A DNA stretch of 8,042 bases, taken from IMG/VR virus record IMGVR_UViG_2574180019_000005. One strand, 5' to 3'. The notes beneath the pieces are model-generated. The model searched no databases, was not told the origin of the DNA, and saw nothing but the letters and a program-made list of their open reading frames with translations. The stretch is from a virus. Taxonomy: Duplodnaviria > Heunggongvirae > Uroviricota > Caudoviricetes. A program made the translations under genes and the position numbers. Within the stretch, counting starts at the first letter, position 1; each line of letters begins with the position of its first letter. Below, piece by piece: positions 1-8,042 of this stretch.

Positions 1-177
1 AGGGGAGGCTTTTGGTGTTTTTCCCTGCCGCTCATCACGTAATTGTTTCACCCATCGCGTCATTGTGGAAAGGCCGACATCCATAGCGCTGGCTGCATCT
101 GCCACGGTGTAATTCTGGTCAACGACCAGTTGAGCGGATTCGCGTTTAAACTCTGCGCTGAAATTTCTTTTTTTCAT
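1..177 (-). CDS. IS911-like OrfA (transposase N-terminal HTH protein), partial; runs off window
   Basis: Mirror copy of the right-end orfA; reverse-strand ATG at 175..177. Translation [59 protein letters not shown] matches IS911 OrfA as I recall it. Confidence 0.8.
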
Positions 178-249
178 TATGGCACCTGTGTTGTTCTGAG
201 GTGAGCATATCACCTCTGTTCAGGTGGCCAAATTCAGTAAACCACTTCA
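1..249 (-). mobile_element. IS3-family (IS911-like) insertion sequence, left-end fragment; IS body continues off the window to the left
   Basis: Bases 1..249 are the exact reverse complement of 7793..8041. The element end is TGAAGTGG (reverse strand, terminal base at 249), a TG-initiated IS3-family terminus, and it carries the start of an orfA reading frame. Confidence 0.8.
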
Positions 250-283
250 ATTCACCCCTACAGAGAGCAAAAGAGAAACGCCG

Positions 284-865
284 ATGAACAACTCATGGTG
301 GCAGGAACTAATGCATTTTTTCCTGCAAGGAATGACACTTAAACAGTTGATTCATATGCTAATCATCCTGATCATATTGATTATTGTTATGCCGGTAAGC
401 GTAAAAGAATGGATAAACCTGCATAGTCCAGAAATCCTTCCTCATTACTGGATGTATTACATCCTGTTGTTTTGCGTTAGCTATGTGCTTAACGGCGTTG
501 TTAATTCCGCTTATCACGCTGTGACTGAAAGAATTGAGGTATTCGCTGCTCAGAAGCGCAAATCTAAAGAAGAAAAATATGTGCAAGATTTGTTTGATTC
601 GTTAACTCTTGGAGAAAGAGCGTATTTGGCATTCGCTGTAGCCGCTAATAACCAGCTACAAACGGAAAAGGGCGCTCATGAATCAATTTCATTGCTCAAA
701 AAAGGACTCCTCGTTCGAAGGCCTCCTGCTGTTGGATATCCTGATACCGACCGTTTCGTTATCCCTGAAAGCTATAGACATGAGTGCTACATTAGGTTTG
801 CCGGGAAGGCAGACAGCCTTATGGATGAACTTATCGCTCAGGATAAGCATGGCAAAAACAAGTAA
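284..865 (+). CDS. sieB: Superinfection exclusion protein B-like membrane protein
   Basis: The ORF-track start at 224 lies inside the IS end; the first ATG in phage DNA is 284, giving 193 aa. Two strongly hydrophobic segments (LIHMLIILIILIIVMPV; YWMYYILLFCVSYVLNGVV). It is convergent with N, the position and size of sieB in lambda and P22. Confidence 0.6.
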   Translation: MNNSWWQELMHFFLQGMTLKQLIHMLIILIILIIVMPVSVKEWINLHSPEILPHYWMYYILLFCVSYVLNGVVNSAYHAVTERIEVFAAQKRKSKEEKYVQDLFDSLTLGERAYLAFAVAANNQLQTEKGAHESISLLKKGLLVRRPPAVGYPDTDRFVIPESYRHECYIRFAGKADSLMDELIAQDKHGKNK

Positions 866-881
866 TTAGCAAATGAATTTA

Positions 882-1154
882 TCATCTCGCCGTCAGTTGT
901 TTTGATTTCCGGTAGCCTGCCGCGTAAAGAGCTACGTTCGGAAGACAAGTTGAACCTTCATATTTTCTGGTCAACGTTGTCAGAGTTATCACTTCTGCTC
1001 TCATTGCTGGTTTGAGCTTGCATTGCAAGACCACTCGTGAAGGGGTTGGCCTGTGTAGCTTGTCGGAGCTGATCGCCTCCTGACTTTGCAGATTTGCGCG
1101 ACGAGCTCTACGGCGAGAAGCTGCGGTGCCTTTAAATTCTGTTTTTCTGGACAT
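882..1154 (-). CDS. N: N-family transcription antitermination protein (P22 gene 24-like)
   Basis: Internal ATG at 1154 with GGAGG 5 nt upstream on the reverse strand. N-terminal arginine-rich motif GTAASRRRARRA; C-terminus LPNVALYAAGYRKSKQLTAR resembles the P22 gp24 C-terminus as recalled. Lies between sieB and nutL/pL as in lambdoid phages. Confidence 0.75.
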   Translation of the reverse strand: MSRKTEFKGTAASRRRARRANLQSQEAISSDKLHRPTPSRVVLQCKLKPAMRAEVITLTTLTRKYEGSTCLPNVALYAAGYRKSKQLTAR

Positions 1155-1265
1155 GGATTCCTCCCGAATAAACTTTGGCGATGCAATCTCGAAGCTCCTC
1201 CTGAGACGGTTGCTTCGGCATTGCATCCCACAGCTTATGTGGTTGGGTGATCTGGCTTTTCAGCC

Positions 1266-1297
1266 ACGTAGTCGAGAGTCGACGTTGTTTAAAGAGC
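1266..1297 (-). promoter_or_regulatory. Candidate nutL (boxA GCTCTTTAAACAA plus boxB-like hairpin GTCGA-CTC-TCGAC)
   Basis: Reverse strand reads GCTCTTTAAACAACGTCGACTCTCGACTACGT. BoxA matches the lambdoid consensus (CGCTCTTA-like). A perfect 5-bp-stem hairpin follows. It sits about 110 nt upstream of N, downstream of the putative pL. Confidence 0.45.
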
Positions 1298-1343
1298 CTG
1301 CCAGTCTGTTCCATTTGGCTTCCAGCGTCCTGCTGACGGTTAA

Positions 1344-1386
1344 ATAGTACGATATGTACTTTACAAGATCAATACAATTTGTTGTA
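1344..1386 (-). promoter_or_regulatory. Candidate pL promoter with overlapping OL operators
   Basis: On the reverse strand: -35 TTGATC (1367..1372), 17-bp spacer, -10 TACTAT (1344..1349). Perfect palindrome AGTACGATATGTACT (1346..1360) overlaps the spacer and -10. A second palindrome TACAA-TTTG-TTGTA lies at 1373..1386. The 11-mer AAAGTACATAT (promoter-relative) is shared with the pR region. Confidence 0.4.
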
Positions 1387-1558
1387 AGTTGGCGTGGTTT
1401 TTTATAACGCTTTGTATTTAATAGTGTTGTTTTTTAGCGTGGATGTATTGCCTCGGCGATGTAAGGAGAGATCAGAATTGCGTGGTTTAGTGGGTTGCAT
1501 CTATTTATTTTTCAATAAATATAATTGGTTATGTGTTTTTAGGTGGGCGAACGTGAGG

Positions 1559-1587
1559 CAAAGAAAACCCGGCGCTGAGGCCGGGTT
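1559..1587 (-). terminator. Intrinsic terminator ending the leftward cI operon
   Basis: Directly after the stop of the 250-aa gene: 6-bp GC stem CCCGGC/GCCGGG (1568..1573 / 1580..1585) with a 6-nt loop, followed on the reverse strand by UUUUCUU (1561..1567). Confidence 0.6.
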
Positions 1588-1590
1588 GTA

Positions 1591-2343
1591 TTATGCTGCA
1601 AGTCTCTTAACCCAAGTCTCTCTTTTGGAGAATGGTAGAACTTGGCTTGATTCATGGAAGAGTAAGGAGAGTTGTTGCATTTGATCACCAATTGCTTCGC
1701 TGTCTATAACAACAAATCTGTTGTTATACTCCTCACTTGAAGCTTTAAGATCAATTAGTTTCCCAAGCAATGAGTAAGCACTATTCCAGCTTCCTCCGTG
1801 TTTCACGCTTGATGTAAAAACGTATTTAGGTATGTCGGTTTTTATTGTTACAGGGACGGTAATTTGATGTCCACTCAAGCCATATACGTTTTCACGAAGA
1901 GAAAGTGCGTCTCTAAGCTCTGTGTGATATAGATAATCAATAACCATACTTTCAAACTTTTCAGCTTGAACTGGCTGATACCAGTCTAACGACAAAGTTG
2001 ATGCGAGTATACCAGCTCTAATTATGTTCGATGTAATCGCACCGACATCCTTTTCTGTTGCCCAAGCAATGATTTCTCCTCGAGCATTGAGTTCTGCGCC
2101 TTCTTTAAGCAGTAATTGTCGTATCTCATCAAGTCGTTTTTTGGTAAGCGAGATCCCTCTTGCCTCCATATTCATTAAGGCATCGCATCTGTCACTAACT
2201 AAATACCTACCATTGACTTCACGGATAAAGGCACCGACATGCTCTCCATCATCACAGTAAGTGAATGGACTGATAATTCTCAAGGTCTTGCCTATTGGAT
2301 GGCATTCGAAACCTAGTTGTGAGATCACTGTTGAGCACATCAT
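1591..2343 (-). CDS. Hypothetical protein (250 aa), distal gene of the cassette at the rex position; candidate defence or exclusion component
   Basis: Long ORF on the same strand as cI. Its ATG (2341..2343) overlaps the stop of the upstream gene in an ATGA arrangement. Followed by a terminator. I recognise no motifs. Confidence 0.75.
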   Translation of the reverse strand: MMCSTVISQLGFECHPIGKTLRIISPFTYCDDGEHVGAFIREVNGRYLVSDRCDALMNMEARGISLTKKRLDEIRQLLLKEGAELNARGEIIAWATEKDVGAITSNIIRAGILASTLSLDWYQPVQAEKFESMVIDYLYHTELRDALSLRENVYGLSGHQITVPVTIKTDIPKYVFTSSVKHGGSWNSAYSLLGKLIDLKASSEEYNNRFVVIDSEAIGDQMQQLSLLFHESSQVLPFSKRETWVKRLAA

Positions 2344-2897
2344 ATTCCAAACCCCATTTGCCCCGACTCATCTTCAAGCGGTAAAGGTATTCTCCCAGAG
2401 TAAGTTATGTTCAGATGTTTACAGAAGTAATTCCAATACCCTACCAGGTCATCTGGGTTTATGTCATCTTCGATTGGAAACGCTATTCTATCACTATAGT
2501 ATCCAGCTTCTTCATAGTATACATGGTAGTGAGCACCGTAAATGATATCTTGGTACTTCGGATGATCGACCTTGTAACTATTCGTGTGTTTGTCAAAGTG
2601 ATAGGTATCTACCGCGAAAACCCTCTTGTTATGATAGAAAGCAATAATATTTATTTTAGGGTAAGAAATCGGGTCATCAGGTTCTGAATCCTGATCTGGT
2701 TTCCATTTCAGTTCAAACTTTAGCCCTTGTATAGGTATACAATCCTCATCCAAGGGGATGATATGGGCTTGTAGCCACATATCAGAGCGACTTGGTTTCT
2801 GTTTCCATTTAACGCCAGAAAAGTTAACTATTTTTTTACAATAAAGTACTTTATCAACTTCTACTTGGCTTGGCTGATAATCATCTATTTTTGCCAA
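2340..2897 (-). CDS. Hypothetical protein (185 aa), proximal gene of the cassette at the rex position; candidate defence or exclusion component
   Basis: ORF begins 40 bp downstream of the cI stop. The first in-frame start is TTG (2895..2897), just after an in-frame TAA; the next ATG is at codon 40. Protein is rich in Asp/Glu/Tyr/His (for example HFDKHTNSYKVDHPKYQDIIYGAHYHVYYEE). Very AT-rich DNA. Confidence 0.7.
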   Translation of the reverse strand: MAKIDDYQPSQVEVDKVLYCKKIVNFSGVKWKQKPSRSDMWLQAHIIPLDEDCIPIQGLKFELKWKPDQDSEPDDPISYPKINIIAFYHNKRVFAVDTYHFDKHTNSYKVDHPKYQDIIYGAHYHVYYEEAGYYSDRIAFPIEDDINPDDLVGYWNYFCKHLNITYSGRIPLPLEDESGQMGFGI

Positions 2898-2936
2898 TGT
2901 TTACCGCCCTGTAAATTGTAGATAAAAGTGGTTTCA

Positions 2937-3596
2937 TCACCCAAACGTCTCTTCAGGCCATTGGCTGGCGATAACTTTCCCCACAACGGAACAACTCTCA
3001 TTGCATGGGATCATTGGGTATTGTGGGTTTAGTGGCTGTAGAAACACCTGACCGCTATCCCTGATCAGTTTCTTGAAGGTAAATTCATCACCACCAAGTC
3101 TGGCTATGCAGAAATCGCCGGGCTCAACAGCTTGCTCAGGGTCAACCAGAATTAACATCCCGTCAGGAAAGCTGGGTTTGGAACCTGTTGGTGCGGTCAT
3201 TGAGTTACCTTCAACCTCAAGCCAGAATGCAGAGTCACTGGCTTTTTTGGTTGTGCTTACCAATCTCTCCGCATCGCCTTTGGTAAAGGTTCTGAGTTCT
3301 GGAGAGAACATCCCAGCCTGAACATGAGAAAAAACAGGGTACTCATATTGTTTTTTAACTGGGGCCGATGAGTATTCGCCAACAGGTGAAAATGTCCCGT
3401 CGTGGTTGAATGATATGTTATCAATACCAAGGTATTTAAACACCACACCAATATCACTAAGAGATGGATGACGAGATCCGCGCAACCAGTGTCCAATCCC
3501 ACCCTGCGTCATACCTAGCTCTTCGGCTAACTTCTCTTGAGTTATGCCGAGCTCTTTCATTCTGGATCTAGCCAGTTCATACCATTTCATTTTCAT
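2937..3596 (-). CDS. cI: Phage repressor cI (LexA/S24 family) with a lambda-type C-terminal domain and a non-lambda N-terminal HTH domain
   Basis: From [20 protein letters not shown] to the C-terminus QWPEETFG the protein matches lambda cI as recalled, including the Ala-Gly autocleavage site (VQAGMF) and the S24 domain. The N-terminal HTH ([23 protein letters not shown]) is different. Start is ambiguous (ATG at 3596 or 3590; the ORF track uses TTG at 3638). Confidence 0.9.
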
Positions 3597-3707
3597 GTCC
3601 TTATTATTACGCTCTGTACTGGAACCATCCATGCACAATGTGTATTTTTACTTGTATTCGCAAAGTACATATTGTATTTTTTTATTCGTGTTTACTATGG
3701 AGGGCAT
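3597..3707. promoter_or_regulatory. OR operator region with candidate pR (and divergent pRM)
   Basis: Candidate pR: -35 TTGTAT (3652..3657), 17-bp spacer, -10 TATTTT (3675..3680), GGAGG 4 nt before the cro ATG. AAAGTACATAT (3662..3672) ends 2 bp before the -10, the same spacing as in the pL candidate. TGTATT occurs three times (3641, 3653, 3673). Confidence 0.45.
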
Positions 3708-3923
3708 ATGAGCAACCTACGAAAATATCGAGAGTCACTGAATATCTCTCAAACAACACTTGCTAAGGCAGTTGGATGCACACAGGGAGCTATCGGACAT
3801 TGGGAATCTGGTCGTCGCTTCCCAGACCTTAAAACATGCCGTGCTCTTGTTGCGTGCCTAAACAAGTTAGGCGCAAAAGTCAGTCTTGATGACGTGTTCC
3901 CGCCGGAACACAAAGCCGCTTAA
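3708..3923 (+). CDS. cro: Cro-like HTH (XRE-family) repressor
   Basis: 71 aa, HTH TQTTLAKAVGCTQGAIGHWESG. Divergent from cI across the operator region with a GGAGG ribosome-binding site. The ORF-track start at 3537 would overlap cI and OR, so I take ATG 3708. Confidence 0.8.
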   Translation: MSNLRKYRESLNISQTTLAKAVGCTQGAIGHWESGRRFPDLKTCRALVACLNKLGAKVSLDDVFPPEHKAA

Positions 3924-3933
3924 TAAGCGGATC

Positions 3934-3966
3934 CGCTCTTTGTAACAACGGACATTCGTCCTACGT
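3934..3966 (+). promoter_or_regulatory. Candidate nutR (boxA CGCTCTTTGTAACAA plus boxB-like hairpin GGAC-ATTC-GTCC)
   Basis: Located just after the cro stop. BoxA and the flanks ACAACG ... CTACGT match the nutL candidate, while the hairpin stem sequence differs. Confidence 0.5.
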
Positions 3967-4064
3967 CGCTGAAAAGCGAGTTCCAAGATATCTGACCAAC
4001 TAAGGCCATATGCGTTTCCACGCATACCTTTCAACTAACTATTCACTATTGGAAATCTTAAGAA

Positions 4065-4361
4065 ATGGAAAGAACAAGTTACAGCAAACTATCACAGCGT
4101 GACGTTGATCGCGCAGAAACAGATTTACTTATCAATCTGTCAGCTATTACCCAGCGCGGTCTGGCAAAGATGATTGGCTGTCATGAATCGAAGATAAGCA
4201 GAACGGACTGGAGATTTATTGCTTCGGTCTTGTGTGCTTTCGGAATGGCATCAGACATCAGTCCGATTAGCAGGGCTTTTAAGTATGCGCTTGATGGACT
4301 CACCAATAAAAAACGCCCGGCGGCAACCGAGCGTTCTGAACAAATCCAGATGGAATTCTGA
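4065..4361 (+). CDS. cII: Transcriptional activator cII (hybrid: lambda-type C-terminus, divergent N-terminal and DNA-binding part)
   Basis: C-terminal LTNKKRPAATERSEQIQMEF matches lambda cII as recalled; the N-terminal two-thirds differ. Position between cro/nutR and O. Confidence 0.85.
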   Translation: MERTSYSKLSQRDVDRAETDLLINLSAITQRGLAKMIGCHESKISRTDWRFIASVLCAFGMASDISPISRAFKYALDGLTNKKRPAATERSEQIQMEF

Positions 4362-4382
4362 GGTCATTACTGGATCAATCCA
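4305..4382 (-). ncRNA. oop: OOP antisense RNA (with terminator to), overlapping the cII 3' end
   Basis: Plus-strand sequence AATAAAAAACGCCCGGCGGCAACCGAGCGTTCTGAACAAATCCAGATGGAATTCTGAGGTCATTACTGGATC is the reverse complement of lambda oop RNA as I recall it, with a few substitutions. The GC hairpin plus U-tract lies at the 3' end (about 4305..4330). Confidence 0.7.
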
Positions 4383-4393
4383 CAGGAGTCATT

Positions 4394-5293
4394 ATGACAA
4401 ATACAGCAAAAATACTCAACTTCTGCAGAGGTAACTTTGCCAAACAGGAGCGTAATGTGGCAGATCTCGATGATGGTTACGCCAGACTATCAAATATGCT
4501 GCTTGAGGCTTATTCAGGCGCAGATCTGACCAAGCGACAGTTTAAAGTGCTGCTTGCCATTCTGCGTAAAACCTATGGATGGAATAAACCAATGGACAGA
4601 ATCACCGATTCTCAACTTAGCGAGATTACAAAGTTACCCGTCAAACGGTGCAATGAAGCCAAGTTAGAACTCGTCAGAATGAATATTATCAAGCAGCAAG
4701 GCGGCATGTTTGGACCAAATAAAAACATCTCAGAATGGTGTATCCCTCAAAACGAGGGAAAATCCCCTAAAACGAGGGATAAAACATCCCTCAAATTGGG
4801 GGATTGCTATCCCTCAAAACAGGGGGACACAAAAGACACTATTACAAAAGAAAAAAGAAAAGATTATTCGTCAGAGAATTCTGGCGAATCCTCTGACCAG
4901 CCAGAAAACGACCTTTCTGTGGTGAAACCGGATGCTGCAATTCAGAGCGGCAGCAAGTGGGGGACAGCAGAAGACCTGACCGCCGCAGAATGGATGTTTG
5001 ACATGGTGAAGACCATCGCGCCATCAGCCAGAAAACCGAATTTTGCAGGGTGGGCTAACGATATCCGCCTGATGCGTGAACGTGACGGACGTAACCATCG
5101 CGACATGTGTGTACTGTTCCGCTGGGCATGCCAGGACAACTTCTGGTCCGGTAACGTGCTGAGCCCGGCCAAACTCCGCGACAAGTGGACCCAGCTCGAA
5201 ATCAACCGTAACAAGCAACAGGCAGGTGTGACAGCCTGCAAACCAAAACTCGACCTGACAAACACTGACTGGATTTACGGGGTGGATTTATGA
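4394..5293 (+). CDS. O: Replication initiation protein O (lambda type)
   Basis: 299 aa, MTNTAKILNF...DWIYGVDL, essentially lambda O as recalled. Contains the ori iterons. Stop overlaps the P start (ATGA). Confidence 0.95.
   Translation: MTNTAKILNFCRGNFAKQERNVADLDDGYARLSNMLLEAYSGADLTKRQFKVLLAILRKTYGWNKPMDRITDSQLSEITKLPVKRCNEAKLELVRMNIIKQQGGMFGPNKNISEWCIPQNEGKSPKTRDKTSLKLGDCYPSKQGDTKDTITKEKRKDYSSENSGESSDQPENDLSVVKPDAAIQSGSKWGTAEDLTAAEWMFDMVKTIAPSARKPNFAGWANDIRLMRERDGRNHRDMCVLFRWACQDNFWSGNVLSPAKLRDKWTQLEINRNKQQAGVTACKPKLDLTNTDWIYGVDL
4742..4870. repeat. ori-lambda: four O-binding iterons followed by an AT-rich unwinding region
   Basis: Iterons ATCCCTCAAAACGAGGGAA (4742), AATCCCCTAAAACGAGGGAT (4761), ATCCCTCAAATTGGGGGAT (4786), ATCCCTCAAAACAGGGGGA (4809), then the A-rich stretch AAAAGACACTATTACAAAAGAAAAAAGAAAAGATTATT. 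Confidence 0.9.
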
Positions 5294-5991
5294 AAAACAT
5301 CGCCGCACAGATGGTTAATTTTGACCGTGAGCAGATGCGTCGGATCGCCAACAACATGCCGGAACAGTACGACGAAAAGCCGCAGGTACAGCAGGTAGCG
5401 CAGATCATCAACGGTGTGTTCAGCCAGTTACTGGCAACTTTCCCGGCGAGTCTGGCTAACCGTGACCAGAACGAACTGAACGAAATCCGCCGCCAGTGGG
5501 TTCTGGCTTTCCGGGAAAACGGGATCACCACAATGGAACAGGTTAACGCAGGAATGCGCGTAGCCCGTCGGCAGAATCGACCATTTCTGCCATCACCCGG
5601 GCAGTTTGTTGCATGGTGCCGGGAAGAAGCATCCGTTATCGCCGGACTGCCAAACGTCAGCGAGCTGGTTGATATGGTTTACGAGTATTGCCGGAAGCGA
5701 GGCCTGTATCCGGATGCAGAGTCTTATCCGTGGAAATCGAACGCGCACTACTGGCTGGTTACCAACCTGTACCAGAACATGCGGGCCAATGCGCTGACTG
5801 ACGCGGAATTACGACGCAAGGCTGCCGATGAACTGACCTGTATGACAGCGCGAATTAACCGTGGTGAGACGATACCTGAACCAGTAAAACAACTTCCTGT
5901 CATGGGCGGCAGACCTCTAAATCGTGTTCAGGCGCTGGCGAAGATCGCAGAAATTAAAGCTAAGTTAGGACTGAAAGGAGCAAGTGTATGA
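5290..5991 (+). CDS. P: Replication protein P (DnaB helicase loader, lambda type)
   Basis: 233 aa, MKNIAAQMVNFDREQMRRIANNMPEQYDEKPQ..., matches lambda P as recalled. Translationally coupled to O and ren. Confidence 0.95.
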   Translation: MKNIAAQMVNFDREQMRRIANNMPEQYDEKPQVQQVAQIINGVFSQLLATFPASLANRDQNELNEIRRQWVLAFRENGITTMEQVNAGMRVARRQNRPFLPSPGQFVAWCREEASVIAGLPNVSELVDMVYEYCRKRGLYPDAESYPWKSNAHYWLVTNLYQNMRANALTDAELRRKAADELTCMTARINRGETIPEPVKQLPVMGGRPLNRVQALAKIAEIKAKLGLKGASV

Positions 5992-6278
5992 CGGGCAAAG
6001 AGGCAATTATTCATTACCTGGGGACGCATAATAGCTTCTGTGCGCCGGACGTTGCCGCGCTAACAGGCGCAACAGTAACCAGCATAAATCAGGCCGCGGC
6101 TAAAATGGCACGGGCAGGTCTTCTGGTTATCGAAGGTAAGGTCTGGCGAACGGTGTATTACCGGTTTGCTACCAAGGAAGAACGGGAAGGAAAGATGAGC
6201 ACGAACCTGATTTTTAAGGAGTGTCGCCAGAGTGCCACGATGAAACGGATATTGGCGGTATATGGAGTTAAAAGATGA
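5988..6278 (+). CDS. ren: Ren protein (lambda type)
   Basis: 96 aa, MTGKEAIIHYLGTHNSFCAPDVAALTGATVTSINQAAAKMARAG..., matches lambda Ren as recalled. Start overlaps the P stop. Confidence 0.85.
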   Translation: MTGKEAIIHYLGTHNSFCAPDVAALTGATVTSINQAAAKMARAGLLVIEGKVWRTVYYRFATKEEREGKMSTNLIFKECRQSATMKRILAVYGVKR

Positions 6279-6303
6279 CCATCTACATCACTGAGCTAAT
6301 AAC

Positions 6304-6335
6304 AGGCCTGCAGGTAATCGCAGGCCTTTTTATTT
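6304..6335 (+). terminator. Intrinsic terminator between ren and ninB (tR2-like)
   Basis: 8-bp stem AGGCCTGC/GCAGGCCT (6304..6311 / 6320..6327), 8-nt loop, followed by TTTTTATTT. Confidence 0.7.
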
Positions 6336-6351
6336 GGGGGAGAGGGAAGTC

Positions 6352-6792
6352 ATGAAAAAACTAACCTTTGAAATTCGATCTCCGGCACATCAGCAAAACG
6401 CTATTCACGCAGTACAGCAAATCCTTCCAGACCCAACCAAACCAATCGTAGTAACCATTCAGGAACGCAACCGCAGCTTAGACCAAAACAGGAAGCTATG
6501 GGCCTGCTTAGGTGACGTCTCTCGTCAGGTTGAATGGCATGGTCGCTGGCTGGATGCAGAAAGCTGGAAGTGTGTGTTTACCGCAGCATTAAAGCAGCAG
6601 GATGTTGTTCCTAACCTTGCCGGGAATGGCTTTGTGGTAATAGGCCAGTCAACCAGCAGGATGCGTGTAAGCGAATTTGCGGAGCTATTAGAGCTTATAC
6701 AGGCATTCGGTACAGAGCGTGGCGTTAAGTGGTCAGACGAAGCGCGACTGGCTCTCGAATGGAAAGCGCGATGGGGAGATCGGGCTGCATGA
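6352..6792 (+). CDS. ninB: NinB (Orf) recombination mediator protein
   Basis: 146 aa, MKKLTFEIRSPAHQQNAIHAVQQILPDPTKPIVVTIQERNRSLDQNRKLWACLGD..., matches lambda NinB as recalled. Ribosome-binding site GAGGGAAG upstream of ATG 6352. Confidence 0.9.
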   Translation: MKKLTFEIRSPAHQQNAIHAVQQILPDPTKPIVVTIQERNRSLDQNRKLWACLGDVSRQVEWHGRWLDAESWKCVFTAALKQQDVVPNLAGNGFVVIGQSTSRMRVSEFAELLELIQAFGTERGVKWSDEARLALEWKARWGDRAA

Positions 6793-7316
6793 CTATCAAA
6801 TCAAATACGCCAGCACACGACAAGGACTGCTGGCAAACGCCGCTTTGGCTTTTTGATGCACTGGATATTGAGTTTGGATTCTGGCTGGATTCGGCAGCGA
6901 GCGACAAAAATGCTCTGTGCGCTCACTGGCTAACTGAGGACGACGACGCGCTCAATTCTGAGTGGGTAAGCCACGGTGCAATCTGGAATAACCCACCGTA
7001 CAGCAATATCAGGCCGTGGGTGGAAAAAGCCGCTGAGCAGTGTATACAACAGCGACAGACGGTAGTGATGCTTGTGCCAGAGGATATGTCTGTCGGATGG
7101 TTCAGCAAGGCTCTGGAGAGTGTTGACGAAGTTCGTATTATCACTGATGGACGGATTAATTTTATCGAACCATCGACAGGGCTGGAGAAGAAGGGAAACA
7201 GCAAAGGCTCCATGCTGCTGATTTGGCGACCGTTCATCAGTCCTCGACGGATGTTTACTACCGTATCCAAAGCGGCATTGATGGCGATCGGGCAGGGCGT
7301 CAGGAGGGCTGCATGA
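6789..7316 (+). CDS. Phage-type DNA N6-adenine methyltransferase
   Basis: 175 aa. Catalytic motif IV NPPY (WNNPPYSN), typical of amino-methyltransferases. ATG overlaps the ninB stop and the stop overlaps the ninE start. Sits where lambdoid prophages carry the small phage Dam-type methylase. Confidence 0.8.
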
Positions 7317-7489
7317 GACGACAGCGACGAAGCATCACCGACATAATCTGCGAAAACTGCAAATACCTTCCAACGAAACGCTCCAGAAATAAACGCAAGC
7401 TAATCCCAAAAGAATCTGACGTAAAAACCTTCAATTACACAGCCCACCTGTGGGATATCCGGTGGCTAAGATATCGTGCGAGGAAATGA
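7313..7489 (+). CDS. ninE: NinE protein
   Basis: 58 aa, [58 protein letters not shown], near-identical to lambda NinE as recalled. Confidence 0.85.
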
Positions 7490-7491
7490 CA

Positions 7492-7896
7492 ATGGATTAT
7501 TCACAGTTAAGTGATTTTGAAATTAACAGAATGGTAGGAGACATAATTTTTAAAGGCCTTTGGGCAAGTAAACCGGAAACATCAGGGAATAACACCAACA
7601 AATGGTATTACGGAAATGCTGATACAACTTTTGAGCCATTAAATCATTTGCCTGACTACTGCAATGATCCGAGCGCTTCATGGCCGATTATTGAGAAATA
7701 CAGGATTTCTATCTTAGACCAGTTAACTGAATGGTGTGTGGATGCAAAAGGCGTAAGCCCAATATTTGATACCAGACCTCTCCGCGCCGCCATGAAGTGG
7801 TTTACTGAATTTGGCCACCTGAACAGAGGTGATATGCTCACCTCAGAACAACACAGGTGCCATAATGAAAAAAAGAAATTTCAGCGCAGAGTTTAA
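7492..7896 (+). pseudogene. nin-region ORF of unknown function, interrupted by IS insertion at 7792/7793 (native part 7492..7792, tail read from IS DNA)
   Basis: ATG 7492 with GAGGA 7 nt upstream. The reading frame continues across the IS terminus TGAAGTGG at 7793, so the last 34 codons are IS-derived. Confidence 0.5.
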
Positions 7897-8042
7897 ACGC
7901 GAATCCGCTCAACTGGTCGTTGACCAGAATTACACCGTGGCAGATGCAGCCAGCGCTATGGATGTCGGCCTTTCCACAATGACGCGATGGGTGAAACAAT
8001 TACGTGATGAGCGGCAGGGAAAAACACCAAAAGCCTCCCCTA
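7793..8042 (+). mobile_element. IS3-family (IS911-like) insertion sequence, left-end fragment; IS body continues off the window to the right
   Basis: Terminus TGAAGTGGTTTACTGAATTTGGCCACC... followed by the orfA start. 7793..8041 is the exact inverted copy of 1..249. Confidence 0.8.
7865..8042 (+). CDS. IS911-like OrfA (transposase N-terminal HTH protein), partial; runs off window
   Basis: ATG 7865. [59 protein letters not shown]. Confidence 0.8.

Follow-up and report, generated by a model that had tools for sequence, protein, structure and literature searches.

The immunity genes

The window, by which is meant the whole 8,042-nucleotide stretch of caudovirus DNA that was analysed (IMG/VR record IMGVR_UViG_2574180019_000005), carries a repressor gene and a cro gene.

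2937..3596, minus strand: cI repressor, 219 amino acids, start codon ATG at 3596, with Pfam domains HTH_3 and Peptidase_S24
3708..3923, plus strand: Cro, 71 amino acids, of the all-helical HTH_3 type

An in-frame ATG of cI is also present at 3590, where it is accompanied by an AAGGA Shine-Dalgarno sequence. The C-terminal domain of cI is a Peptidase_S24 domain (E=1.1e-28) and is nearly identical to that of lambda cI, as the comparison with PDB 3bdn, the lambda repressor, brings out (E=2.6e-96; near identity over residues 84-219). The N-terminal domain is another matter, as it is of HTH_3 type with the recognition helix TQGGIGHW, and that of lambda cI is only distantly related to it. Cro is a paralogue of this N-terminal domain (35% identity) with the recognition helix TQGAIGHW, and being all-helical is quite a contrast to the beta-sheet Cro of lambda. 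The original prediction that neither the cI N-terminal domain nor Cro is of lambda type was right. Rfam gave no RNA family in the window.

Promoters and a word common to two of them

Three promoters are pertinent.

1344..1372, minus strand: pL, with -35 TTGATC (1372..1367), a 17-bp spacer and -10 TACTAT (1349..1344), directed leftward to N
3652..3680, plus strand: pR, with -35 TTGTAT (3652-3657), a 17-bp spacer and -10 TATTTT (3675-3680), transcribing cro
3603..3631, minus strand: predicted pRM, with -35 TGGATG (3631..3626), a 17-bp spacer and -10 AATAAT (3608..3603)

Both elements of pL agree with features annotated at the equivalent positions of a Stx1-converting phage (GenBank AP005153); in that record the -35 of pR is placed one base further left and its -10, though truncated, is at the same place, and the -35 of pRM is annotated as 'maintenance promoter'. 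The -10 of pRM and its start at about 3596 are predicted from sequence. As that start would coincide with the A of the cI ATG, the mRNA would be leaderless, as it is in lambda. A strict scan for the sigma-70 consensus, with a threshold of 9/12, missed all three promoters, which score 7-8/12, and they are retained solely by position and annotation. By consensus they are weak, and this was counted against the explanation favoured below.

The starting point was an 11-mer, AAAGTACATAT, that had been noticed at the same place in pL and in pR. Both copies are there, at 1352-1362 on the minus strand and 3662-3672 on the plus strand, and they are the only two in the window, where allowing up to one mismatch yields no further match (0.14 expected). 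In promoter orientation each starts 4 bp after the candidate -35 and ends 2 bp before the candidate -10, so the register is identical. The half-site words TTGTAT and TACAA, said to recur in both control regions, are indeed concentrated there, with 4 of the 9 window copies of the former (0.22 expected) and 6 of 19 of the latter (0.47 expected). What did not hold up is the 'perfect palindrome' of which the leftward copy was thought to be part, since AGTACGATATGTACT (1346-1360) is self-complementary at just 10 of 15 positions, and only 5-bp arms, AGTAC and GTACT, pair.

How much weight can a shared word of this length bear? When the two AT-rich regions were dinucleotide-shuffled, 1.3% of shuffles had a word of at least 11 nt in common, and the complete phage ev017 has the 11-mer a third time, at position 31759, outside the window and within an ea22-like gene. 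On its own the 11-mer is modest evidence; a model with six sites is strong evidence.

Six putative 17-bp operators

The sites, each 17 bp and each a putative operator, are as follows.

1345..1361, minus strand: OL1, AAGTACATATCGTACTA in pL orientation, an exact match to AP005153 and to Table S5 (see below)
1370..1386, minus strand: OL2, CAATACAATTTGTTGTA on the plus strand, one mismatch to the Sakai/AP005153 operator
1403..1419, minus strand: OL3, TATAACGCTTTGTATTT on the plus strand, one mismatch to the Sakai/AP005153 operator
3605..3621, plus strand: OR3, TATTACGCTCTGTACTG, an exact match to AP005153 and Table S5
3631..3647, plus strand: OR2, ATGCACAATGTGTATTT, an exact match to AP005153 and Table S5
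3663..3679, plus strand: OR1, AAGTACATATTGTATTT, an exact match to AP005153 and Table S5

The half-site consensus of the six is W-A-R-T-A-C-A, with AC-N5-GT invariant. The 11-mer consists of one flanking base and bases 1-10 of OL1 or OR1, the two operators nearest the promoters, of which it takes in the outer half-site and the centre; it does not correspond to a natural unit. Its copies do lie in operators placed alike at pL and pR, but the proposal that the 11-mer or the 15-bp palindrome is itself the operator fails, as the unit is 17 bp and runs 7 bp beyond the 11-mer.

A degenerate IUPAC consensus, WARTAC-N5-GTAYTW with up to three mismatches allowed, was unspecific (32 matches, 22.8 expected), and for this reason a symmetric position weight matrix (PWM) was derived from the six sites, with leave-one-out scoring in which each site is removed from the matrix before it is scored. 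With the symmetric matrix the six are the top six both of the window and of the 50-kb ev017 genome, and on leave-one-out they rank between 1 and 8 among the 49,984 positions of that whole genome. OR1 is the best (20.6 bits, rank 1) and overlaps the -10 of pR by 5 bp; OL1 (18.9 bits, rank 3 of 49,984) overlaps the -10 of pL, and OL2 (16.2 bits, rank 6), its centre 25 bp from that of OL1, overlaps the -35 of pL by 3 bp. OL3 (16.0 bits, rank 6) is centred 33 bp from OL2. On the right, OR2 (15.5 bits, rank 8) adjoins the -35 of pRM, its centre at about -43 from the predicted pRM start and 32 bp from that of OR1, and OR3 (14.8 bits, rank 8) lies within the spacer and -10 of pRM, centred 26 bp from OR2. 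OR2 and OR3 are poor dyads, with 4 of 8 symmetric pairs each, and this was counted against the operator reading.

Could the shared word be instead a conserved or duplicated promoter core, part of the spacer between -35 and -10 and kept by selection for RNA polymerase, not for repressor binding? Both copies are inside that spacer in the same register, and pL and pR change together at the base next to the 17-mer, which is A at both in the window and G at both in Sakai. However, the half-site recurs in OL2, OL3, OR2 and OR3, none of them in that spacer register and OR3 on a promoter of the opposite strand, the sites are dyad-symmetric, and the correspondence between recognition helix and half-site reaches distant phages whose promoters differ. 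A promoter core is accordingly very unlikely as the explanation.

An immunity region of VT2-Sakai type

Is the immunity type one that had escaped recognition, as was originally proposed? From 2939 to 3930, i.e., across cI and cro, the window is 98.4% identical in nucleotide sequence to the Shiga-toxin phage VT2-Sakai (NC_000902), and the N-terminal 82 amino acids of cI are 98.8% identical to those of VT2-Sakai and 100% identical to those of 2851, 1717, Stx2 II and PA phages. The features annotated as 'putative operator' in AP005153 are the six 17-mers, four exactly and two with one mismatch, and the six operators of VT2-Sakai were tabulated by Yin et al. 2015 (Table S5, PMC4587872), who credit them to Fattah et al. 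2000. That both promoters carry the 11-mer without a mismatch, and that the sequence does not match the lambda consensus or the 434 one, would suit a new type with the 11-mer or a perfect 15-bp palindrome as an operator unit unlike those described. But its novelty is refuted by the Sakai identity and by the prior annotation and publication, the palindrome is imperfect, and the boundary of the 11-mer is not conserved (its first base is G in Sakai); this alternative is exceedingly improbable. Very probably the window represents a lambdoid prophage immunity region of VT2-Sakai type with six 17-bp operators. As the operators are already known, the finding of the 11-mer is real but ordinary.

The same operators were used in EMSAs with lambda CI, which bound weakly, with an apparent Kd of 3.7-6.4 uM (PMC10742460), a result counted against the favoured explanation. 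For the cognate repressor the searchable literature, outside which Fattah 2000 and Tyler 2004 fall, yielded no binding, footprint or transcript-start data, and a full-text literature search for the operator 17-mers themselves found nothing. A 'bully phage' preprint and the BAA2326 paper were set aside, as they concern other immunity types.

VT2-Sakai (Sp5), AP005153, Nil2, 2851 and 1717 have the same cI, cro, operator regions, promoters and operator spacings. In comparison with Sakai, OL2 has G for C here and OL3 has T for C, bases in the spacers between operators differ, and the -35 of pL is TTGATC where Sakai has, in the same place, the stronger TTGACC. Between cI and OL the cargo is a DUF6978-like plus DUF1828 gene pair where Sakai has orf22, and the replication genes are lambda-like O/P, unlike those of Sakai. 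The same prophage region is present in E. coli ATCC 25922 and in phages ev017 and ev207.

Conservation, near and far

In OL of five Sakai-type phages, 2 of 51 alignment columns are variable within operators, as against 13 of 110 elsewhere. In the more diverged phages Louie and Dewey the spacers have diverged, and the changes in OR either affect the centre or an edge of a site or bring it closer to the consensus; those in OR2 affect only the central positions 9-10 or are towards the consensus (C4 to T), and OR3 is unchanged, last base excepted, in Nil2, 2851, Sakai, Louie and Dewey. Their OL retains three sites, with spacings of 25 and 33 bp, amid unrelated flanking DNA, and the OL3 17-mer is identical in both though the DNA surrounding it is otherwise different. 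In the motif search that had been suggested for phages with related cI N-terminal domains, sites and spacings persisted in Louie, Dewey and phage L. Phage mEp021, whose N-terminal domain is 45% identical, was without a comparable cro and OR layout.

The immC region of Salmonella phage L/ST64T (c2, cro) has the same recognition helix, TQGAIGHW/Y. Phage L shares the half-site and has six sites, three plus three (11-18.8 bits), at nearly the same spacings, that between OL1 and OL2 being 25 bp as it is here and in Louie and Dewey; the N-terminal domain of its c2 is 55% identical, the range for L/ST64T and relatives being 52-55%, and the C-terminal domain is not lambda-like. For epsilon34/g341c the published or annotated consensus is WTACRAWWTGTAT, and as its helix is KGA and its half-sites ATACA, the specificity is probably different. 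More generally, in relatives whose helix is KGA or QSA the half-site is ATACA or ATTACA. With a related N-terminal domain, a helix of the form x-x-G/S-x-[IVL]-x-H-W and, at OR, 17-mers with a TAC-N5-GTA core, the present system belongs to what may be called the TAC-N5-GTA operator family (L, epsilon34/g341c, Erwinia, Klebsiella and Vibrio phages), an operational grouping of our own and not a curated one, in which OR spacings are about 32-34 and 25-26 bp. Across the phages of E. coli, Salmonella, Erwinia, Klebsiella and Vibrio it is OR1-OR2 that is kept at 32-34 bp, approximately three helical turns, and OR2-OR3 and OL1-OL2 that are kept at 25-26 bp.

This conservation of sites and spacings across genera, taken with the leave-one-out ranks of 1-8 among 49,984 positions, is what tells against coincidence, namely an AT-rich word arising by chance in both of two AT-rich intergenic regions. 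The shuffles and the copy within the ev017 gene are in its favour, and it is nevertheless scarcely credible.

Comparison with lambda, 434 and P22

The layout is that of lambda. The genes cI and cro diverge, each side has three operators, all of them 17-bp pseudo-dyads, which overlap pL, pR and pRM, O1 overlaps the -10 of a lytic promoter, and OR2 adjoins the -35 of pRM, which is weak and apparently without a leader. The sequence recognized is WARTACA in place of the TATCACC of lambda; the half-sites share A2, A5 and C6 and differ at positions 1, 3, 4 and 7. The lambda operator consensus, TATCACCGCCGGTGATA, has no match at up to three mismatches. The sites had been described as unlike the 17-bp operators of lambda, which stands for sequence specificity and does not stand for architecture, these too being 17-bp pseudo-dyads, three to a side. 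Their stated lack of resemblance to 434 operators is borne out, as the 14-bp ACAA-N6-TTGT has zero matches in the window. Where there is likeness to 434 and P22 is in a repressor N-terminal domain and Cro that are paralogous all-helical HTH proteins with a common recognition helix, here TQG[G/A]IGHW, and the same operators. The operators of 434 are 14 bp and those of P22 18 bp, and here they are 17 bp. In lambda the OR1-OR2 spacing is 24 bp; with 32 bp here, OR1-OR2 cooperativity in the style of lambda is not assured.

A possible mechanism

The sites, their statistics and conservation, the helix and half-site correspondence and the promoter register were observed directly, and a scheme may be built on them in which binding, affinity order, activation and cooperativity are supplied by homology with lambda and by geometry. 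Dimers of cI would bind the six sites through the HTH_3 N-terminal domain and its helix TQGGIGHW. At OL1 and OL2 they would occlude the -10 and -35 of pL, and at OR1 the -10 of pR, while from OR2, given the position of its centre, they may activate the weak and probably leaderless pRM, which occupation of OR3 at high cI concentration would turn off. The C-terminal domain, so close to that of lambda, would be expected to mediate dimerisation, pairwise cooperativity and RecA-stimulated self-cleavage. Cro, a paralogue of the cI N-terminal domain that shares its recognition helix (TQGAIGHW), would bind these sites too, shutting down pRM first and pR and pL afterwards.

Given the conserved spacing and a C-terminal domain nearly identical to that of lambda, cooperative pairing at OR could differ from that in lambda; for example, OR2-OR3 may be the pair with lambda-like spacing, or cooperativity between OR1 and OR2 may extend over three turns. 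From the identity of helix and operator consensus in phage L/ST64T it is predicted that Sakai-type Stx phages and P22-like Salmonella phages would repress each other. The two taken together, an OR pairing logic unlike that of lambda and such cross-repression, are a tentative proposition, and one that is rather unlikely to be correct. No prior statement of the pairing idea based on spacing, or of the cross-repression prediction, was found in the literature searched.

Implications

The operators entered the literature in 2000 and GenBank annotation in 2003, and the addition made here is a modest one, namely statistics and comparisons that independently support six sites still labelled 'putative', and the observation that phages of several genera share this operator type, its spacing and the recognition helix. 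The VT2-Sakai immunity type governs induction of the Stx2 prophage and hence release of Shiga toxin, and it is through that control that the operators are medically relevant.

The region and its known operators

The window holds a lambdoid prophage's early region, in which Pfam identifies:

224-865, + strand: SieB
882-1226, - strand: N
cI: HTH_3 and Peptidase_S24 domains
Cro: HTH_3 domain
CII

There are two cargo genes between cI and OL. Positions 880-4400 are 100% identical to phages ev017, ev207, PhiR57_1 and PhiR63_2, and positions 1-7795 match, again at 100%, a prophage carried by E. coli ATCC 25922 and its relatives. Is this an unrecognised immunity type, as the original prediction held? 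It is not, because the cI-cro segment (2939-3930) has 98.4-98.6% identity with VT2-Sakai, the Stx1-converting phage AP005153, Nil2, 2851, YYZ-2008, the PA-series Stx2a phages and others, in which residues 1-82 of cI show 98.8-100% identity; the immunity type is that of VT2-Sakai. Sakai CI falls in Clade I of Llarena et al. 2022, and has 61% overall identity to lambda CI.

Operators of VT2-Sakai type are already known. The GenBank entry AP005153 carries six 17-bp 'putative operator' features, together with -10 and -35 features, and their counterparts here are:

1345-1361: OL1, exact match to AP005153
1370-1386: OL2, 1 mismatch
1403-1419: OL3, 1 mismatch
3605-3621: OR3, exact match
3631-3647: OR2, exact match
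3663-3679: OR1, exact match

Yin et al. 2015 (PMC4587872, Table S5) give these six as the operators of Sakai/PST1 and credit them to Fattah et al. 2000, with OL and OR labels that appear swapped relative to gene order; PMC9803871 and PMC10742460 take them as the six VT2-SA operator sites. By EMSA, lambda CI has an apparent Kd of 3.7-6.4 uM on each VT2-SA site, versus 0.2-3 uM on lambda's own (PMC10742460). The literature searched, which did not take in Fattah 2000 and Tyler 2004, yielded no experiment with the cognate repressor on the six operators, and the sites are therefore still predicted.

The 11-mer shared by pL and pR

The word AAAGTACATAT, an 11-mer common to the early promoters pL and pR, has exactly two copies in the 8,042-bp window, at 1352-1362 (-) and 3662-3672 (+), and no further match there at up to one mismatch (0.14 expected). 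In the direction of early transcription the promoters read:

pL: TTGATC-TTGT-AAAGTACATAT-CG-TACTAT
pR: TTGTAT-TCGC-AAAGTACATAT-TG-TATTTT

The register is equal, each copy starting 4 bp past the -35 candidate and ending, as had been proposed, 2 bp before the -10 candidate. In each copy the 11-mer comprises a single flanking base followed by bases 1-10 of the operator, OL1 (AAGTACATATCGTACTA) or OR1 (AAGTACATATTGTATTT), and is so a fragment of 17-bp operators already annotated and tabulated, rather than the novel operator unit it was taken for. Nor is AGTACGATATGTACT (1346-1360) the perfect palindrome claimed: only its 5-bp arms, AGTAC/GTACT, pair (10 of 15 positions self-complementary). The recurrence of half-sites in the two control regions is real, with four of nine copies of TTGTAT lying there versus 0.22 expected, and six of 19 copies of TACAA versus 0.47. 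Of dinucleotide shuffles, 1.3% give the two AT-rich regions a common word of 11 nt or more; the sharing is by itself only modestly improbable. The main observation is real and marks genuine operator sites, though these are still only predicted.

Complete phage ev017 has a third exact copy of AAAGTACATAT at 31759-31769, outside the window and within an ead/Ea22-like gene; no good 17-mer site includes it, as its absence among the top matrix hits shows, and it is probably due to chance. The base just outside OL1 and OR1 (1362 and 3662), the first of the 11-mer, is A at both promoters here and G at both in Sakai, Nil2, 2851 and the Stx1 phage, which could be coincidence or could reflect recognition reaching one base past the annotated 17-mer.

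Support for six sites

The twelve half-sites give the consensus W-A-R-T-A-C-A-n-W, with A5 and C6 in all 12, A2 in 11 and T4 in nine. With a symmetric position weight matrix built from the six 17-mers, the operators take the first six places whether the window or the 50-kb ev017 genome is scanned, the next best scoring at least 3 bits lower; when the scored site is withheld from the matrix, each still ranks 1st to 8th among 49,984 positions. The score order, OR1 > OL1 > OL2 ~ OL3 > OR2 > OR3, is compatible with the strongest sites being promoter-proximal, scores not being affinities.

In the OL of Sakai-type phages, 2 of 51 operator columns vary versus 13 of the 110 other columns. Louie and Dewey have a cI N-terminal domain that is 94-96% identical; the substitutions in their OR lie at the central positions 9-11 or at edge position 17, or go towards consensus (C4->T), and the spacers have diverged. 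Their OL, in otherwise unrelated DNA, keeps three sites (15.6-20.0 bits) with the centre spacings of the window, 25 and 33 bp.

The sites had been described as unlike those of lambda and 434. As to sequence specificity this stands, the window having no 434-type ACAA-N6-TTGT site and no lambda-consensus site at up to three mismatches, but the architecture is lambda's: pseudo-dyads of 17 bp, three on each side. The half-site shares A2, A5 and C6 with that of lambda.

A proposed switch

OL1 lies over the pL spacer and 5 bp of its -10, OL2 overlaps the pL -35, and OR1 lies over the pR spacer and 5 bp of its -10. The leftward cI maintenance promoter, pRM, would comprise a -35 TGGATG (3631..3626), 17 bp, and a -10 AATAAT (3608..3603), with transcription predicted to begin near 3596, on the A of the ATG of cI, which would make the cI mRNA leaderless, as in lambda. 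OR2 would adjoin the pRM -35, its centre at about -43 being a class-II-like activating position; lambda cI activates pRM from such a position. OR3 would cover the pRM spacer and -10. From residue 84 to 219, cI hardly differs from the C-terminal domain of lambda cI (3bdn, 8gmu), so that it is expected to dimerise, to bind cooperatively as pairs of dimers and to undergo RecA-stimulated cleavage much as lambda cI does. The centre spacings (OR1-OR2 32 bp; OR2-OR3 26 bp; OL1-OL2 25 bp; OL2-OL3 33 bp) differ as a set from lambda's, and any cooperativity between OR1 and OR2 would have to act across about three turns.

Neighbouring features

Two overlapping genes occupy the rexAB position, downstream of cI, and probably form a candidate pair for anti-phage defence, expressed in the lysogen as part of the cI operon; in Sakai, Nil2 and 2851 the cargo there is another one (orf22).

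within 1591-2897, - strand: cargo gene 1, 185 aa, weak DUF6978 match, PADLOC PDC-M24A E=4.8e-4
within 1591-2897, - strand: cargo gene 2, 250 aa, DUF1828, PADLOC PDC-M24B E=4.7e-10
1566-1587, - strand: intrinsic terminator after the cargo genes

The pL leader (1254-1296, - strand) has a boxA-like GCTCTTTAA (1296..1288) with two small hairpins after it:

1283..1271, - strand: hairpin 1, GTCGA-CTC-TCGAC
1267..1254, - strand: hairpin 2, TGGCT-GAAA-AGCCA, GNRA loop

It is a plausible nutL for an N protein of H-19B/933W type, and the likeliest start codon of N is ATG 1154, with a GGAGG Shine-Dalgarno. A CII-type TTGC-N6-TTGY motif, TTGCTGTAACTTGT (4074-4087, - strand), just within the start of cII (4065-4361), is where pRE would be expected; chance alone would give one such match in the window, and only the position is suggestive.

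The window ends, 1-249 and 7793-8041, carry the same 249 bp, without a mismatch, in opposite orientations; this is the terminus of an IS3-family element (inverted repeat starting TGAAGTGG, orfA start present). ATCC 25922 and relatives have the left copy only, between ral and sieB, and match the window only up to 7795. The right copy, which interrupts ninX, is either a real second inverted insertion, giving a composite-transposon-like bracket round the whole of the immunity/replication region, or an artefact of fold-back in the assembly.

Repressor helix and distant relatives

The HTH_3 domains of cI and Cro are paralogous (35% identity, E=8e-11) and have a recognition helix in common, TQGGIGHW in cI and TQGAIGHW in Cro, as one would expect of two proteins reading the same sites; the glutamine at its start aligns with lambda Gln44. 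PDB 28tn chain A, a 'lambda repressor-like protein' of 82 aa, matches the window Cro (3708-3923) over its full length (E=4.5e-17), and as the solved structure of a close homologue is usable for modelling Cro-operator contacts.

The motif search suggested for phages with related cI N-terminal domains finds similar sites in Louie, Dewey, phage L and others. The c2 and Cro of Salmonella phage L have an N-terminal domain 55% identical, an unrelated C-terminal domain and the helix TQGAIGHW/Y, and the phage (2416-2492, 3228-3299) has three OR and three OL sites of 11-18.8 bits on the window-derived matrix. Further afield, relatives with a KGA helix (g341c, where the sites are annotated as repressor-binding, and Erwinia Midgardsormr38) have ATACA half-sites preceded by a variable base, a QSA-helix Vibrio phage has ATTACA, and QGG-helix Klebsiella phi8.3 has AATACA/AGTACG. 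The outer half-site base tracks the helix (QGG/QGA, A[AG]TACA; KGA, ATACA; QSA, ATTACA). A TAC-N5-GTA core is common to Salmonella, Erwinia, Klebsiella and Vibrio phages with related repressor N-terminal domains, and OR spacings of ~32-34 and 25-26 bp are kept in all these distant relatives. The epsilon34 paper gives the operator consensus WTACRAWWTGTAT and names the L, VT2-Sa and Nil2 repressors as the closest relatives of its repressor.

What is mildly new, besides the apparent absence of a cognate-repressor footprint, is that this operator type and its asymmetric spacing are kept across genera. Since the phage L helix is the same as that of the window cI, the two repressors are predicted to recognise each other's operators.
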